From Oscillospiraceae bacterium (lineage in GTDB: Bacteria; Bacillota; Clostridia; Oscillospirales; Ruminococcaceae), in the NCBI GenBank assembly GCA_014799385.1, contig JAAVIC010000006.1, positions 52,037-116,036 on the forward strand: a stretch of 64,000 nt of DNA, written 5' to 3'. A program made the translations under genes and the position numbers. Under the pieces are notes generated by a model. It saw only the letters and a program-made list of their open reading frames with translations. It did no database searches and was not told where the DNA came from. Shown piece after piece: positions 50,799 through 56,812 of this stretch. Each line of letters starts with the position of its first letter. Position 1 is the stretch's first letter.

Positions 50799-50903
50799 AG
50801 AAACCAGTCCTTTTTGATATAACTATTCATTATAATTATACACCATTTATTGCAGAATTGCAAGCGGTTTTCTATTTTATTTTGCGAATGGGAATCACAG
50901 AAA

Positions 50904-50932
50904 AGCCGCCCCTCGAACTTTGAGGGGCGGCT
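50904..50932 (-). terminator. Terminator of dockerin operon 2
   Basis: AGCCGCCCCTC stem followed by TTTT on the minus strand. Confidence 0.75.
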
Positions 50933-50958
50933 CACTCTGTTGAAAAATTGTTTTTTGT

Positions 50959-51870
50959 TTACTGTTCGTTGATAAGGAACTTCAGAATCGCAGTCGCGTC
51001 TGCGGCGGTCACTTTGCCGTTCTGATCCATGTCGGCATTTACGCTGCCAATATAGGATAGTTCCATTATGCCCGTCAGGTGTTTGAGGACTGCCGTTGCG
51101 TCTGCGGCGGTTACTATGCCGTCACAATTGGCGTCGCCCTTTTTCCAGGTCGGAGTAGGTGTGGGTTCGGGAGTGGGCGTTGGAGTAGGTGTGGGTTCGG
51201 GTTCCGGAGCAGGTGCGGGGGTAGAATCTATAGCAAAATTAACCCTGATATCTATATCGTTGGCGGGCATTGAAAATGTATATACGGTTTGGTTCGGCTG
51301 CCCCTGAATAGTGTCGGTTTTACAATATCTCGGCTGTCCCGAAACCCACAATTGGCTATTGTGATACTGCACCAGGATGTTATCAACCTTGTAGCCCTCT
51401 TTCGGAGTGGCGGTTATGGTTATCGTTTCGCCCTGTTTTAATGCCCCCTTATCGTCAATGGATATATCTCCCCCAAAGTTTTTGAGCTTCTGATAGATGT
51501 AAAAGGGTTTGTTGGTGGAGCTTGAAAATTCCACATTGTAGCTTACTTCTTCGTCCGGCATATTAATGATATAGGTTTTGCTTTGGCTACGCGGGTGGTC
51601 ATATATAAGTTCTTTATTGGATTTTCTTGCAACTACTGTAAAATTATCAATTTCACAACCATTACTTGCCGTTACGGTTATGGCTACTTGTGTGCCTGCG
51701 GCGGCTTGTGAGGGTGCGTTTACCGTTCCGGGACCTTCGGAACGATTGCATACAATGGGGTGGGTGGCTTGCGCCGCCGAAGCGGTTGTGTTGAATGCGC
51801 TGTTTGCGCTGAATGTGCCTGCCGTGAGAGCCAATGCCATCACAGCAGCAATTATTCTCTTGAATTTCAT
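50959..51870 (-). CDS. Secreted dockerin protein 7 (type A leader, two InlB-B-like repeats, PT linker)
   Basis: Signal peptide MKFKRIIAAVMALAL; F.MP..D(V/I) repeats; KGDANCDG...AADAT x2; ends KFLINEQ. Confidence 0.88.
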   Translation of the reverse strand: MKFKRIIAAVMALALTAGTFSANSAFNTTASAAQATHPIVCNRSEGPGTVNAPSQAAAGTQVAITVTASNGCEIDNFTVVARKSNKELIYDHPRSQSKTYIINMPDEEVSYNVEFSSSTNKPFYIYQKLKNFGGDISIDDKGALKQGETITITATPKEGYKVDNILVQYHNSQLWVSGQPRYCKTDTIQGQPNQTVYTFSMPANDIDIRVNFAIDSTPAPAPEPEPTPTPTPTPEPTPTPTWKKGDANCDGIVTAADATAVLKHLTGIMELSYIGSVNADMDQNGKVTAADATAILKFLINEQ

Positions 51871-51898
51871 TGCGTTTTCCTCCTATGTAGTTTCAATA

Positions 51899-52786
51899 TT
51901 AAGACTTGCCTACAAGCATTTTTAGAATCGCAGTTGCGTCTGCGGCGGTCACTTTGCCGTTCTGATCCATATCGGCATTTATACTGCCCACATATGATAA
52001 CTCCATTATACCCGTCAGGTGTTTGAGGATTGCCGTTGCGTCTGCGGCGGTCACTTTGCCGTCACAATTGGCGTCGCCCTTTTTCCACGTTGGAGAGGGG
52101 GTTGGTGTAGGGTCTGGCGTGGGATTTGGAGTTGGTGTGGGATTCGGGGTAGGTGTAGGATTCGGGGTAGGTGTAGGAGTAGGCTTCGTGGTTGATTGGA
52201 ATCGGCAATATACAACCACAGCATACGCGGGCATTATAAAACTGTTTCCATTAAGCGGAACGATGTCCGCGCTATTCTTATGATTATGCACATAAAGCTC
52301 GGCAATTTCTGCGCCTGCTTTCGGTACAGCGTTTATAGTAATTGTTTCACCTTCAACAGCCCCATATTTACTGACACTCACCTCCCCCAATCCCTCACTT
52401 CCGTCCATATCACAAGAAATCATGTACACCGTGATTGGTTTCATGTGTGTGGTTACACGTACATCGGCATCCGGCATTTGGAATGTCGCGGTGCATTTAG
52501 TCGTCTGAGAACTGATAAGAGTCTGTTCGTAATATTTACCGCCAAGATAATATGATAAAACTATTTTTTCAATCGTGCGGAAGGATTTGGGTTCTGCGGT
52601 TATTGTTACGGTGTCTCCCTCGCGGGCTTTGGGTTTATCGGATTCAATAGATATAAGTTGGTCAGAACCATTTATCACAATAGAGTGTTCTTCTTTTTCT
52701 GCAAATGCCACGGTGCTGAACGAACCCAGCGCAACGATTGAAGCAAGCGCGGCTGCCATAATTGACTTTTTGCCTTTGAATTTCAT
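51899..52786 (-). CDS. Secreted dockerin protein 6 (type B leader, two repeats)
   Basis: MKFKGKKSIMAAAL leader; PT/PN linker; dockerin ending KMLVGKS. Confidence 0.88.
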   Translation of the reverse strand: MKFKGKKSIMAAALASIVALGSFSTVAFAEKEEHSIVINGSDQLISIESDKPKAREGDTVTITAEPKSFRTIEKIVLSYYLGGKYYEQTLISSQTTKCTATFQMPDADVRVTTHMKPITVYMISCDMDGSEGLGEVSVSKYGAVEGETITINAVPKAGAEIAELYVHNHKNSADIVPLNGNSFIMPAYAVVVYCRFQSTTKPTPTPTPNPTPTPNPTPTPNPTPDPTPTPSPTWKKGDANCDGKVTAADATAILKHLTGIMELSYVGSINADMDQNGKVTAADATAILKMLVGKS

Positions 52787-52814
52787 TGAATTTGCCTCCT
52801 ATGTAGTTTCAATA

Positions 52815-53480
52815 TTAAGACTTGCCTACAAGCATTTTTAGAATCGCAGTCGCATCTGCGGCGGTCACTTTGCCGTTTTGGTCCATGTCGGCATTTACGC
52901 TGCCCACATAGGAAAGTTCCATTATGCCAGTCAAATGTTTGAGGATTGCCGTTGCGTCTGCGGCGGTCACTTGGCCGTCACAATTGGCATCGCCCTTTTT
53001 CCAACTGAGTGTCGGAGTTGGGTCGGGAGTCGGTGTCGGAGTGGGAGTAGGGTCGGGTGTGGGAGTAGGTGTGGGGTCAGGCTTTGATGTGGGTGGGTTA
53101 ATGAAATCAAAACGCACACCAACCTGTACATTAACTGAGGGCATTGTAAATCTTTTTTCGTATGTGCCGGTTATGTCGCTGTCATGAAAAAAACACTCCC
53201 CATTTCCTTGGTTGTAATATAAGCTAAATGAACCAATCTTACATCCGGCATCCGGTGTCACAGTTACGATTATCTCCTCGCCTGCCTCAGGGTAGTAATT
53301 ACTAATCACAACACGCCCATCCGGGCATTCTCCATTCGGATAAATTTGACCTACCGAAGCACAACCTACAAAGAGCTTTTTTGCCGGTTGCTCTGCCAGT
53401 GCTACCATACTAAACGAGTTTGCTGCAACAATCGTTGAAAGCGCGGCTGCCATAATTGACTTTTTGCCTTTGAATTTCAT
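52815..53480 (-). CDS. Secreted dockerin protein 5 (type B leader, one Cys-rich repeat)
   Basis: Same leader, linker and dockerin architecture. Confidence 0.88.
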   Translation of the reverse strand: MKFKGKKSIMAAALSTIVAANSFSMVALAEQPAKKLFVGCASVGQIYPNGECPDGRVVISNYYPEAGEEIIVTVTPDAGCKIGSFSLYYNQGNGECFFHDSDITGTYEKRFTMPSVNVQVGVRFDFINPPTSKPDPTPTPTPDPTPTPTPTPDPTPTLSWKKGDANCDGQVTAADATAILKHLTGIMELSYVGSVNADMDQNGKVTAADATAILKMLVGKS

Positions 53481-53507
53481 TGTTTTCCCTCCCGTACGGT
53501 TTCAATA

Positions 53508-54413
53508 TTATGACTTGCCTACAAGCATCTTTAGAATCGCAGTCGCATCTGCGGCGGTTACTTTGCCGTTTTGATCCATATCAGCATTTACGCTGCCAAT
53601 ATAGGATAGTTCCATTATGCCCGTCAAGTGTTTGAGGACTGCCGTTGCGTCTGCGGCGGTTACTATGCCGTCACAATTGGCATCTCCCTTTTTCCAATTG
53701 AGTGTCGGAGTTGGGTCGGGAGTTGGTGTCGGAGTGGGCGTGGGTTCCGGTGTGGGGGCAGGAGCAATATCTTCAACGAAATTAACGCAAATATCTATAT
53801 CGTTGTCGGGCATTGAAAATGTGTATACGGTTTGGTTCGGCTGCCCCGGAATAGTGTCGGTTTTAGAATACTTCGGCTGACCGGGGGTATATGATTGGCT
53901 GTTGTAATACTGAACCAAGACATTGCCAACCTTATAGCCCTCTCTCGGAGTGGCAGTTACGGTTACCAAATCGCCTGGGCTTATTGCTCCTTCCTCCTTG
54001 TCAACCGATATATTTCCCCGACCGGTGTAATACGTTTGATAGATATAATAGGGACGATTGACAGATTTTGAAAAGATCACGTTGTAGTATACCCATTCAT
54101 CCGGCATAACAAATTCATAGGTCTTGCTTTTGCTGCAAGGGGAGTCGTTTATAAGTGTTTTGCCGGATTCTGAAACTACCGTAAAACGATATACTGCATA
54201 ACCCTCATCCGCTGTTGCGGTTAGTTTTACTGTATCACCTGCGGCTGCCTGAGGTGATACATTTACTGTTCCGGGACCATCAAATTGATGGCGGCGAATA
54301 TCGTGGGTGGCTTGTGCCGCCGAAGCGGTTGTGTTGAACGCGCTGTTTGCGCTGAATGTACTTGCTGTGAGAGCCAAGCTCATTACAACAGCTGTTATGG
54401 ACTTAAATTTCAT
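53508..54413 (-). CDS. Secreted dockerin protein 4 (type A leader, two repeats); close paralog of 50959-51870
   Basis: FSANSAFNTTASAAQATH and KTDTI.GQPNQTVYTFSMP shared with protein 7. Confidence 0.88.
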   Translation of the reverse strand: MKFKSITAVVMSLALTASTFSANSAFNTTASAAQATHDIRRHQFDGPGTVNVSPQAAAGDTVKLTATADEGYAVYRFTVVSESGKTLINDSPCSKSKTYEFVMPDEWVYYNVIFSKSVNRPYYIYQTYYTGRGNISVDKEEGAISPGDLVTVTATPREGYKVGNVLVQYYNSQSYTPGQPKYSKTDTIPGQPNQTVYTFSMPDNDIDICVNFVEDIAPAPTPEPTPTPTPTPDPTPTLNWKKGDANCDGIVTAADATAVLKHLTGIMELSYIGSVNADMDQNGKVTAADATAILKMLVGKS

Positions 54414-54491
54414 CGAATCATCCTCCTGTGCAAAAACAGATTAATTTCTTGTTGCAAGCTATTTTGCAACACAGCATAGCTTGTAAAATAT

Positions 54492-54520
54492 ATTATAACA
54501 CAATATAATTTGTTTGTCAA
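54492..54520 (-). promoter_or_regulatory. Promoter of dockerin operon 2
   Basis: TTGACA-N17-TATAAT. Confidence 0.8.
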
Positions 54521-54564
54521 TAGATTTTTCTCAAATTTCATTAAATAATTTTATGGGAATAAGT

Positions 54565-54597
54565 GTGAGCCGCTCCCTATTTCAGGGAGCGGCTCAC
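54565..54597 (-). terminator. Terminator of dockerin operon 1
   Basis: GTGAGCCGCTCCCT-ATTTC-AGGGAGCGGCTCAC. Confidence 0.75.
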
Positions 54598-54620
54598 TCT
54601 GTTGAGAAATTGTTTTTTGT

Positions 54621-55238
54621 TTACTGTTCGTTGATAAGGAATTTCAGAATCGCCGTTGCGTCTGCGGCGGTCACTTTGCCGTTCTGATCCATGTCGGCAT
54701 TTACGCTGCCAATATAGGATAACTCTATTATGCCCGCCAAGTGTTTAAGTACCGCTGTTGCGTCTGCGGCGGTTACTATGCCGTCACAGTTAGCGTCGCC
54801 CTTTTTCCAACTGAGTGTCGGAGTTGGGTCGGGGGTCGGTGTAGGTGTGGGAGTAGGGGTTGGGTCGGGGTCTGGTTCATAATCAAAGGTTACGATTACA
54901 GCTACATCGTGATCCGGCATTTGGATTGGCACCTCACATTTACCCGTCACAAAACTGGCAAGAACTTCTTTATTATAACTATCTATAGATTCTGCTATAG
55001 ATAACCATTTAATTATGACACCGGATTCAGGTTCTGCGGTTATTGTTACGGTATCGCCTTCGCGGGCTTTGGTTTTATTGGTAGCTATACGTCCGTTTCC
55101 ACGTGAAGTGGGTCCTATATATATCCGAACATTATGTTCGGTTTTTTCTTCCGCAAATGCCACGGTGCTGAACGAACCCACTGCAACGATTGAAGCAAGC
55201 GCGGCTGCCATAATTACCTTTTTACCTTTGAATTTCAT
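54621..55238 (-). CDS. Secreted dockerin protein 3 (type B leader, one repeat)
   Basis: Same architecture; ends KFLINEQ. Confidence 0.88.
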   Translation of the reverse strand: MKFKGKKVIMAAALASIVAVGSFSTVAFAEEKTEHNVRIYIGPTSRGNGRIATNKTKAREGDTVTITAEPESGVIIKWLSIAESIDSYNKEVLASFVTGKCEVPIQMPDHDVAVIVTFDYEPDPDPTPTPTPTPTPDPTPTLSWKKGDANCDGIVTAADATAVLKHLAGIIELSYIGSVNADMDQNGKVTAADATAILKFLINEQ

Positions 55239-55266
55239 TGTGTTTTCCTCCTATGTAGTTTCAATA

Positions 55267-55911
55267 TTAAGTCTTTCCGACAAGTAGCTTCAGAATCGCC
55301 GTTGCGTCTGCGGCGGTTACTTTGCCGTTCTGATCCATATCGGCATTTACGCTGCCCATATAGGATAGTTCCATTATACCCGCCAAGTGTTTAAGCACCG
55401 CTGTTGCGTCCTCGGCGGTCACTTTGCCGTCGCAGTTAGCGTCGCCCTTTTTCCAAGTCGGAGCGGGTGTGGGAGTAGGAGTAGGCGTTGGGGTGGGCGT
55501 AGGGGTAGGAGTTGGGGTAGGAGTAGGGTCAGGTTCGGGAGTAGGTTCGGGTATGAAATCCCAAACCACAGAAACAGTTACGTGTTTTGCGGGCATTGTA
55601 AACGTTGTGGTAAACGTTGAAGTACCGCTCGAATAGAGTTGTCCGTTAATATAAAGATTATTATACCTGCAGCCCGCAGCGGGCGTCACGGTCACGGTTA
55701 TGGTTTCGCCCGGGGAAATATCCCGGGTTTTGCTTACAGACAATGTCCCGGAGGGCTGTTGGATTCTGTCTCCATACTTGGGGTAAGATGTAATGCTGTT
55801 GATTGAATAAGTTTGGGTGCTTCCCGCAAACGCTGTCGCGCTGAAAGAGTTTGCCGCAACAATTGCCGAAAGCGCGGCTGCCATAATTGCCTTTTTACTC
55901 TTGAATTTCAT
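55267..55911 (-). CDS. Secreted dockerin protein 2 (type B leader, one repeat, long PT linker)
   Basis: Same architecture; ends KLLVGKT. Confidence 0.88.
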   Translation of the reverse strand: MKFKSKKAIMAAALSAIVAANSFSATAFAGSTQTYSINSITSYPKYGDRIQQPSGTLSVSKTRDISPGETITVTVTPAAGCRYNNLYINGQLYSSGTSTFTTTFTMPAKHVTVSVVWDFIPEPTPEPDPTPTPTPTPTPTPTPTPTPTPAPTWKKGDANCDGKVTAEDATAVLKHLAGIMELSYMGSVNADMDQNGKVTAADATAILKLLVGKT

Positions 55912-55938
55912 TGTTTCTCCTCCCGTACGGTTTCAAAA

Positions 55939-56583
55939 TTACGACTTGCCTACAAGTAACTTCAGAATCGCAGTTGCGTCTGCGGCGGTTACTTTGCCGT
56001 TTTGATCCATATCAGCATTTACGCTGCCCATATAGGATAGTTCTGTTATGCCTGCCAAGTGTTTGAGTACCGCTGTTGCGTCCTCGGCTGTTACTTTGCC
56101 GTCACAATTTGCGTCGCCCTTTTTCCAAGTGGGAGCGGGAGTTATGGGAGGCTGCTCCGGAGTAGGCTCGGGTGTGGGATCGGGAGTAGGCTCAGGTGTA
56201 GGTTCGGGCACGGGTGCATAATCCCAAATTGCGGTTACGTCCACATCAGCATCAGGCATTTGGAAACATGCGGTATATTGAGTTGTTATATCGCTGGCAA
56301 GAGTCTGTTTGTTCCCATTGTACTCAAGAATTATTTTTGCTTGGCAGCCGGGATAAGGTTCTACTGTTATTTCTACGATTTCGTCTTCGCAGACTTGAGC
56401 TTTATTGGTATTTATACGTCCGCCTCTAGTTACATGTTCGTTTGCGGGCGTATTTGGAATACGTGAATGAAGTTTAACATTATGTTCGGTTTTTTCCGCC
56501 AATGCAACTGTATTGAACGAACCCACCGCAACGATTGAAGCAAGCGCGGCTGCTATAATTGACTTTTTGCCTTTGAATTTCAT
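55939..56583 (-). CDS. Secreted dockerin protein 1 (type B leader, one repeat)
   Basis: Start ATG 56583 after CAGGAGGA RBS; same architecture. Confidence 0.88.
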   Translation of the reverse strand: MKFKGKKSIIAAALASIVAVGSFNTVALAEKTEHNVKLHSRIPNTPANEHVTRGGRINTNKAQVCEDEIVEITVEPYPGCQAKIILEYNGNKQTLASDITTQYTACFQMPDADVDVTAIWDYAPVPEPTPEPTPDPTPEPTPEQPPITPAPTWKKGDANCDGKVTAEDATAVLKHLAGITELSYMGSVNADMDQNGKVTAADATAILKLLVGKS

Positions 56584-56664
56584 TGTGCTTTCCTCCTGTG
56601 CAAAAGAACAGAACCAATTTCCTGTGTAAGCTATATTGCAGTACAATATATCTTTTTAAGATGT

Positions 56665-56693
56665 ATTATAACACAAGAAAGCTGTCTTGTCAA
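56665..56693 (-). promoter_or_regulatory. Promoter of dockerin operon 1
   Basis: TTGACA-N17-TATAAT; flanks resemble those at 54492-54560. Confidence 0.8.
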
Positions 56694-56812
56694 TATATTT
56701 TCCTTAAATTTCATTAAATATTTTTATAGGAAAATCGCTGTATACCGCGAAATTCTATTTACAGCATTTGAAATAATTGGAAAACTTTTTCCGAAAAAAT
56801 TCACAAAAGGAC

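Follow-up and report, generated by a model that had tools for sequence, protein, structure and literature searches.

The locus examined here raises the question of why, in a tandem array of dockerin genes, the ends of a gene track its position in the operon rather than the identity of the body between them. The array lies on the minus strand of the window, a 64,000-nucleotide stretch of an Oscillospiraceae genome, where seven genes form two tandem operons, A1-A2-A3 and B1-B2-B3-B4 (50.9-56.7 kb). An original prediction held that homologous recombination within near-identical dockerin, spacer and signal-peptide blocks swaps, deletes or duplicates whole variable cassettes, and does so without a dedicated recombinase. 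We examined this proposal by dissecting the array segment by segment, by comparing it with other strains at the same chromosomal site, and by searching for enzymes and cis sites of recombination.

Architecture of the dockerin array

Each operon opens with a perfect promoter and closes with a hairpin (Table 1), and every gene of the array is built on one plan: a predicted signal peptide is followed by a single Ig/FN3-like Flg_new_2 domain or a pair of them, then by a Pro/Thr linker, and last by a type I dockerin. The dockerin (PF00404, with two calcium-binding F-hand repeats) scores 38.8-41 bits in seven of seven genes (cut-off 22.9), and the N-termini, in their sequence, combine MKFK... with a hydrophobic core and with an A-x-A site. 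For the middle domain, PF18998 (Flg_new_2) gives 57.0 bits in B1, 56.5 in B4, 36.2 in B3, 30.7 in A2 and 23.9 in A3 (gathering cut-off 23.6); A1 (15.8) and B2 (15.1) fall under the cut-off and are tied in by BLASTP to A3 (E 5e-14) and A2 (5.5e-10). An AF2 model of B4, with a domain pLDDT of 70-94, has tandem Ig/FN3-like matches, and a fold search with this model returned generic tandem Ig/FN3 matches only, at low TM-scores and with no lead on function. The genome, which is 99.9% complete, contains 16 dockerin ORFs; a search of it for PF00963 cohesins gave none at E <= 0.001, a screen that divergent cohesins could escape.

Table 1. Features of the dockerin array, with coordinates in the window.
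Feature	Coordinates	Strand	Description
Operon A promoter/5'UTR block	56591..56732	-	TTGACA-17-TATAAT at 56665-56693; RBS motif TTTGCACAGGAGGA at 56591-56604
A1	55939..56583	-	type-B leader, 1 beta-sandwich domain, PT linker, dockerin 55939-56127, tail LLVGKS
A2	55267..55911	-	type-B leader (AANSFS variant, like B2), 1 Flg_new_2 domain, dockerin 55267-55455, tail LLVGKT
A3	54621..55238	-	B3-like 'MKFKGKK' leader, 1 domain, B4-like linker, dockerin 54621-54809, tail KFLINEQ
Operon A terminal hairpin	54565..54597	-	-31.1 kcal/mol, z -7.9; 5' flank common with B4 terminator
Operon B promoter/5'UTR block	54421..54559	-	promoter at 54492-54520; motif TTTGCACAGGAGGA at 54421-54434
B1	53508..54413	-	type-A leader, 2 Flg_new_2 domains, dockerin 53508-53696, tail KMLVGKS
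B2	52815..53480	-	type-B leader, 1 domain, dockerin 52815-53003, tail KMLVGKS
B3	51899..52786	-	type-B leader, 2 domains, long PT linker, dockerin 51899-52087
B4	50959..51870	-	type-A 'MKFKRIIAAV' leader, 2 beta-sandwich domains, dockerin 50959-51147, tail KFLINEQ
Operon B terminator hairpin, then U-run	50897..50940	-	-32.5 kcal/mol, z -6.4

Both promoters match TTGACA-17-TATAAT at 12 of 12 positions, with a TG upstream, and each sits in a 144-nt promoter/5'UTR block whose closing end is TTTGCACAGGAGGA; this motif has two exact occurrences in the 64 kb, against 0.02 expected. Internal gene tails adjoin the ribosome-binding site of the next gene at a spacing of 27-28 nt. Because the two promoter blocks are 80.6% identical, the terminator flank is shared, the spacers after A1 and after B1 are of matching type, and the leaders of A3 and B3 have 92.7% nucleotide identity, operons A and B probably descend from the duplication of one whole promoter-to-terminator unit.

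Leaders, bodies and gene ends follow different groupings

Inspection of the individual segments bore out the mismatches on which the prediction had been built. A3 and B4 both end in KFLINEQ, and their downstream DNA is nearly identical from the last codons to the terminator stem; the resemblance reaches further than had been noted, with 54580-54875 matching 50919-51207 at 87% over 297 nt. These two genes differ in leader and in domain number, B4 having 'MKFKRIIAAV' and two Flg_new_2 stretches and A3 having 'MKFKGKK' and one. The first genes of the operons share TTTGCACAGGAGGA yet are of different type, with a type-B leader in A1 and a type-A leader in B1, and the close paralogs B1 and B4 (whole-gene identity 77% for DNA and 71% for protein) have unlike C-termini, KMLVGKS and KFLINEQ. 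What did not stand was the description of the constant blocks as near-identical. Dockerin pairs are 80-97% identical; dS between them is 0.28-1.08, and the longest stretch without a mismatch measures 16-64 nt. Paralog dockerins have a dN of 0.034 and a dN/dS of ~0.06, and their mean dS of 0.57 implies that homogenisation is slow and patchy. Conservation of the dockerin at the protein level is, on these values, largely the work of purifying selection.

Separate trees for the leader and for the two halves of the dockerin are incongruent, as anticipated, and AU tests, for which the clades were named only after inspecting the data, reject the rival pairings. The leader tree joins B1 with B4 at 100/100 and rejects (A3,B4) with p 1e-7; for the 3' half of the dockerin, the tree joins A3 with B4 at 95/94 and rejects (B1,B4) with p 9.6e-4; in the tree of the dockerin 5' half, genes group by operon. 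Breakpoint tests on triplets, another check that had been proposed, place a switch inside the dockerins of B1 and B4. The B1 dockerin is B4-like over nt 1-99 and A1-like from nt 114 (breakpoint interval 53583-53598), with informative sites dividing 13:1 and then 1:31 (Fisher p 1.9e-9 if the flank is counted and 9.8e-6 on coding sequence alone). The PHI test was not significant for the seven window dockerins alone (p 0.07-0.12), and gave p 5e-4 when tails and flank were included and p <= 0.001 across all strains.

We also considered whether A3 arose recently by the joining of a B3-like N-terminus to a B4-like C-terminus. Its two ends agree with this, as does strain L022, in which B3' and B4' stand unfused before the operon A terminator, but the middle is only 42% identical to domain 1 of B3, so that any such fusion would be old.

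Rearranged forms at the same site in other strains

Comparison strains, all of them metagenome assemblies in which repeats can be misassembled, reveal several structural forms between flanks that are 94-98.7% identical: A1-A2-A3, an A1/A3 chimera, a pair of other genes (X-Y), and B3'-B4' before the operon A terminator. In L013 and L014, a single operon A gene, an exact A1/A3 chimera, replaces A1-A2-A3. The L013 sequence follows A1 and then A3 (informative sites 6:0, then 0:41). The crossover lies where the two parental dockerins agree over 17 nt, and its interval corresponds to 56065-56083 in A1. L013 and L014 are two samples, assembled differently, and are 100% identical over 13.9 kb. This form is a cassette deletion; 17 nt of identity is short for RecA, and template switching is therefore equally possible. 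In L017 and L018, again two samples, two unrelated cassettes fill the interval from the A1 leader to the A3 linker, an arrangement that is a cassette swap. Thus, of the outcomes that had been foreseen, swapping and deletion are both represented, and a recent duplication was not caught.

Strain L022 has an unfused B3'-B4' pair ahead of the operon A terminator, and the hairpin of operon A stands after a B4-like gene in that strain.

Smaller exchanges are seen within orthologous genes. In a more distant strain, the body of the B4 ortholog is 94.0% identical and its dockerin 78.0%, and this dockerin is closest to the others of its own genome; ortholog dockerins overall have a dS of 0-0.46, versus 0.04-0.06 in the flank. 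Patches of ortholog dockerins match paralogs, namely a B2-type 5' half in L019_B3 (p 7e-4) and a B2 tail in the B3 gene of the window (p 1.1e-4), where the tails of B3 and B2 are the same, which is not so in L013 or L019. Patches are visible in L019_B4 (an A3-type tract) and L013_B1 as well, and are not significant on a single-breakpoint test. An apparent half dockerin in B2 of L018 was set aside, as it lies 17 nt from a contig end, is the sole departure from the 99.8% identical L019 and is possibly artefactual. Between strains, domain 1 of B1 is hyperdivergent, with a dN/dS of 0.31 and a dS of 0.68, values that indicate an old allele rather than targeted mutagenesis.

A second locus carries two, two or four genes by strain, chimeric members included. 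One of these, L021_C1, consists of an A2 dockerin core followed by a locus-2 tail (sites 19:0, then 0:27; p 2e-13). Among 18 species of the genus and 12 of the order, searches gave dockerin-level matches only, and scans of genome contigs and JGI metagenomes yielded one further informative MAG; the gene family is narrow in distribution.

Recombination enzymes and cis sites

The expectation that no dedicated recombinase serves the array agrees with what the surrounding sequence contains. No integrase or resolvase is found on the contig within ~88 kb of the array; there is no reverse transcriptase near it, matches being confined to other contigs (C1 at ~145 kb, and C25); and the search for inverted repeats near the array produced just one 22-nt pair of 82% complementarity, which is not meaningful. 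RecA is encoded in the genome. Breakpoints are scattered over dockerin nt 45-63, 99-114 and 177-180, leader nt ~75 and the linker, and all cassettes are complete genes with a ribosome-binding site and start codon, with no silent partial cassettes.

Discussion

The data show recombination inside the constant blocks and make it highly probable that ordinary homologous recombination in these ends fused, deleted and swapped whole genes, a reading that holds mainly because of the other strains at the same site. The mosaic, its breakpoints and the structural differences between strains are direct observations; from them we infer the enzymology, the direction of each event and the selective reason. 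Three constant blocks of DNA (the intergenic spacer with the signal peptide, the linker, and the dockerin), kept similar by purifying selection and patchy gene conversion, would be the places at which general homologous recombination occurs, either of RecA type or through template switching. Unequal crossover between the blocks of different genes would produce gene fusion, or the loss or gain of intervening cassettes; short conversion tracts would copy dockerin segments from one paralog to another, inside the array as well as from locus to locus; and exchange between strains would swap the variable middles by way of junctions that lie in the constant blocks. The majority of junctions fall upstream of the last ~7 codons, such that the extreme C-terminus, the spacer or terminator, and the promoter keep their position as the body changes.

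Could the mosaic instead have been set once, by duplication units with boundaries offset into the dockerins, and its tails simply inherited with no later exchange? Promoter and terminator homology does reflect duplication of a whole unit, the dS of 0.28-1.08 between paralog dockerins implies that most of their similarity is old, and PHI on the window alone was not significant. However, paralog-matching patches are strain-specific (the A3-type tract of L019_B4, the B2-type 5' half of L019_B3, the B2 tail of the window's B3), dS between ortholog dockerins rises to 0.46 against 0.05 in the flank, and three to four structural forms occur among strains with flanks 94-99% identical; history alone is contradicted by this comparison and is improbable. 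That positional likeness stems from constraint without DNA exchange, be it on cohesin specificity, on the start of translation of the following gene or on the surroundings of the terminator, we consider very improbable: the mosaic signal is present at synonymous and non-coding sites, the chimeras are exact with clean switch points, and whole genes are present or absent, even though the dockerin dN/dS of ~0.06 and the 27-28 nt at which internal tails abut the next ribosome-binding site fit such constraint.

Constant ends with variable middles recall cassette systems, and the hyperdivergent domain 1 of B1 could likewise suggest programmed diversification by a site-specific recombinase or shufflon, a diversity-generating retroelement, or silent donors of the pilE/pilS kind. 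The lack of an integrase or resolvase within ~88 kb, of reverse transcriptase matches other than on separate contigs and of meaningful inverted repeats, together with cassettes that are complete genes, breakpoints at many positions and the old-allele values of B1 domain 1, leaves this a very slim prospect. Nor do we give appreciable weight to the mis-joining of repeats, in the window genome or in the comparison contigs. Contigs L011, L014, L017, L018 and L019 do all end within constant blocks; yet an ENA contig matches the window array at 100% over 7.4 kb, operon B has the same order and tails in four assemblies, the chimera recurs in two differently assembled samples and the X-Y form in two samples, and identical runs between paralogs (16-64 nt) do not reach the assembly k used for the k119/k141 contigs.

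Recombination in the constant blocks, which is our preferred reading, is itself a textbook mechanism; what the array offers is a nucleotide-resolution record of dockerin, linker and signal-peptide coding blocks as recombination substrates. Such recombination accounts for the grouping of dockerins by genome instead of by orthology, and for the capacity of dockerin-tagged families to change cargo quickly from strain to strain. For annotation and pangenomes, it follows that gene ends are unfit for calling orthology and that assemblies will break or mis-join in the blocks. The strain-variable Ig-like modules, putatively docked at the surface, are candidates for interactions with phage or with the niche, in a gut or rumen lineage of Oscillospiraceae that has received little study. 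A more speculative and rather doubtful proposal is that the two loci form a population-level "cassette display," in which dockerin, linker and leader serve as handles for exchanging surface-docked Ig-like binding modules, and old alleles such as B1 domain 1 (dS 0.68) might persist because phage, host IgA or substrate niches impose diversifying or frequency-dependent selection. If true, it would amount to the first variable surface repertoire that is driven by recombination and built on a cohesin-dockerin system, in a genome without a detectable canonical cohesin.

A full-text literature search returned nothing relevant on gene conversion, concerted evolution or recombination of dockerins, or on Flg_new. 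Cellulosome and amylosome proteins of Oscillospiraceae (Ruminococcus flavefaciens, R. bromii) likewise have a Sec leader and a PT linker and end in a type I dockerin that has two F-hand repeats, and there too the dockerins of one genome resemble each other. The array differs in its cargo, which lacks any enzyme or recognised CBM and is limited to small Ig-like Flg_new_2 modules, one or two per protein, and its genome differs in having just 16 dockerin ORFs and no Pfam cohesin match. In Neisseria pilE/pilS and Borrelia vlsE, variable cassettes are also exchanged via flanking conserved sequence, but those systems use silent, promoterless partial cassettes, one expression site and special cis elements, and act at high frequency, whereas the cassettes of the present array are all complete genes that look expressed, and rearrangements are observed only when strains are compared.

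Parallels also exist in families with conserved ends that recombine around variable middles and yield chimeras, as in locus switching of Helicobacter pylori babA/babB/babC and in the emm-like genes of group A streptococci. There, as here, the locus supplies the promoter and gene end and the body is exchanged, by RecA-type rather than site-specific recombination; in the present array, by contrast, the 3' block is a dockerin, the operons are tandem and co-oriented, copy-number change by unequal crossover is prominent, and there is no known link to host or immunity. The tandem lpl lipoprotein cluster of Staphylococcus aureus varies in copy number by strain through recombination in conserved parts, and resembles our locus as a co-oriented array of secreted or surface paralogs with strain-variable copy number; it differs in protein family and in that each gene here is built of leader, middle, linker and dockerin modules. 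The array is thus an example of a known process, concerted evolution with unequal crossover in a tandem surface-protein family.

The dockerin array and its products

Seven co-oriented genes occupy the minus strand between 50.9 and 56.7 kb, separated by spacers of 27-28 nt except for a single 207-nt gap. A perfect promoter (TTGACA-17-TATAAT, with a TG upstream) lies ahead of operons A and B alike, and each operon is closed by a strong hairpin (-31.1 and -32.5 kcal/mol). The two hairpins (54565-54597 and 50897-50940) have a common 5' flank and first stem bases; the stems otherwise differ, the changes falling on both arms in a way that preserves pairing. All seven products follow one plan, in which an MKFK signal peptide comes first, followed by one or two modules of Flg_new_2 type (PF18998) and, after a Pro/Thr linker, a type I dockerin; five pass the PF18998 cut-off, and the remaining two were connected through BLASTP. 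An AlphaFold model of B4 contains two all-beta domains (block pLDDT 70-94), for which the PDB matches are tandem Ig/FN3 modules.

Coordinates of the array genes (window positions) and of the second locus
Feature	Position	Strand	Operon or setting
A1	55939-56583	-	operon A
A2	55267-55911	-	operon A
A3	54621-55238	-	operon A
B1	53508-54413	-	operon B
B2	52815-53480	-	operon B
B3	51899-52786	-	operon B
B4	50959-51870	-	operon B
second locus	own genome, C1:57075-58469		between PPDK and MgtE

The variable middles of paralogs share 26-42% protein identity (61% for B1 and B4), and the DNA of leader, linker and dockerin is 74-97% identical among genes of one leader type; between the two types, leaders are just 40-57% alike. 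The B3 linker (52088-52195) consists of units of 12 and 18 nt, and its counterpart on contig L013, from another strain, has an additional 18-nt unit (301 vs 295 aa), indicating slippage within the linker repeats. Past the EF-G-like gene, the array adjoins a plus-strand gene (59046-61136) for a secreted protein of 696 aa that has a divergent dockerin at its C-terminus; this gene is kept in other strains (L013, L017). In the window's own genome just 16 ORFs carry a dockerin, eight from the array's family; the genome is 99.9% complete and gave no Pfam match to cohesin PF00963, and the docking partner may be very divergent.

Mosaic relationships within the window

Among the window paralogs, the closest relative of each gene shifts from segment to segment. 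Spacer and leader pair A3 with B3 (92.7%), A2 with B2 (82.3%) and B1 with B4 (77.4%); over dockerin nt 1-100, B1 and B4 are 97% alike and the remaining genes cluster by operon; over nt 101-165 the pairs are A1 with B1 and A3 with B4; and in the tail A3 matches B4 at 23/24 nt and B2 equals B3. The original prediction, that gene ends track position rather than gene identity, is confirmed as an observation: the KFLINEQ tail and downstream sequence are common to A3 and B4 up to the first arm of the terminator (an end resemblance of 297 nt at 87%), and the RBS motif TTTGCACAGGAGGA was found at the two operon starts only (0.02 expected), where it ends a promoter/5'UTR block of 144 nt with 80.6% identity between operons. 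B1 and B4, described there as close paralogs with different C-termini, are paralogous over their full length (77% DNA identity) and do differ in their tails. The constant blocks were mistakenly called near-identical, as dockerin-block dS is 0.28-1.08 (mean 0.57; dN 0.034); the longest identical runs between these blocks are 16-64 nt.

Separate maximum-likelihood trees for the leader and the dockerin 3' half conflict. The leader tree unites B1 with B4 (100/100), with A3-B4 excluded by the AU test (p 1e-7), and the dockerin 3'-half tree unites A3 with B4 (95/94), with B1-B4 (p 9.6e-4) and A3-B3 (p 0.002) rejected, the AU-tested clades having been chosen after inspection of the data. In a triplet test, B1 is B4-like at 13/14 informative sites to nt 99 and A1-like at 31/32 from nt 114 (Fisher p 1.9e-9 with flank, 45 breakpoints tried; 9.8e-6 for coding sequence only, 26 tried). 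The PHI test was not significant for the seven window dockerin cores alone (p 0.07-0.12), and gave p 5e-4 with tails and flanks added and p <= 0.001 with all strains.

The same site in other strains

Decisive evidence came from comparisons with other strains, all of them metagenome assemblies, whose loci were recovered by exact-protein look-ups across several such assemblies. The shared chromosomal site is flanked by the EF-G-like gene and a PolyA_pol-type nucleotidyltransferase. Haplotype 2 (L013 and L014, from separate samples and 100% identical across 13.9 kb), with flanks 97-98% identical to the window, has one operon-A gene in place of A1-A2-A3. This gene equals A1 to dockerin nt 45 and A3 from nt 63, with informative sites divided 6:0 then 0:41 and zero mismatches around the junction; it is the expected product of an unequal crossover deleting 1318 bp. 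Haplotype 3 (L017 with L019, and L018 from a separate sample) agrees with the window to about nt 75 in the leader of A1; agreement resumes at the A3 linker, and between these points lie two unrelated cassettes, X and Y. In haplotype 4 (L015, L016 and L022), which belongs to a more distant strain (flank identity about 94%), a B3'-B4' pair precedes an operon-A-type terminator and operon-B promoter, and a different single-domain gene with a KFLINEQ end precedes the nucleotidyltransferase; its B4 is 94.0% identical to window B4 in the body and only 78.0% in the dockerin, whose nearest matches are other dockerins of its own genome. Comparison of the haplotypes thus shows the last operon-A slot held by four different bodies, whose 3' ends are all of one kind.

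Differences between ortholog dockerins are clustered and match paralogs. B4 of L019 carries an A3-type tract at dockerin nt 54-88, the 5' half of the L019 B3 dockerin is B2-type, B1 of L013 has a short patch of A1 type, and the window B3 tail is that of B2, from which B3 of L013 and L019 differ. Ortholog dockerin dS runs from 0 to 0.46, against 0.04-0.06 for the flanking gene. In L018, 17 nt separate a B2 ortholog with half a dockerin (4485-5048) from the end of the contig; the B2 dockerin is complete in L019, which is otherwise 99.8% identical, and the half dockerin is possibly an artefact of assembly.

Between the window and L013, B1 domain 1 (54040-54320) has diverged to dS 0.68 and dN 0.21 (dN/dS 0.31). 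Local hypermutation is disfavoured as the source, since the adjoining leader and dockerin have dS 0 and 0.02 and the window allele is closer, at 89%, to a haplotype 4 gene (L022) than to B1 of the near strains. These sequence comparisons point to allelic replacement, in which an old allele would have been moved through recombination.

A second locus and the mechanism of exchange

The second locus behaves the same way as the window array, with two genes both in the window strain and in L021 and four in L020. Leader, middle, and dockerin with tail of the window strain's gene 2 match three different L020 genes, and gene 1 of L021 joins an operon-A2 dockerin core to a locus-2 tail (sites 19:0 then 0:27). 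Gene 1 of the window strain (C1:57915-58469, minus strand) encodes a 184-aa protein with half a dockerin, the start of the first F-hand being joined to the end of the second by a 102-nt deletion whose junction is a short repeat present in both dockerin halves; the L020 ortholog has a complete dockerin. In L021, a 593-nt gap between the two genes (5631-6223) holds remnants (leader, dockerin end) of a third gene with its variable middle deleted.

The genome encodes RecA; no integrase, resolvase or reverse transcriptase was found on the contig closer than about 88 kb, no meaningful inverted repeats are present, and junction positions are many and varied. A dedicated rearrangement system therefore does not fit; general homologous recombination or template switching acting on diverged direct repeats does. 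We infer the direction of single events by parsimony. Because junctions lie mostly upstream of the last seven or so codons, the tail, spacer, promoter and terminator remain tied to position. The proposal of homologous recombination in the constant blocks without a dedicated recombinase is thus supported by the chimeras, the segment trees and the lack of a nearby recombinase. In the literature searched, we found no earlier description of such evolution for dockerin genes; the process itself is an ordinary one, the concerted evolution and unequal crossover of a tandem surface-protein family.
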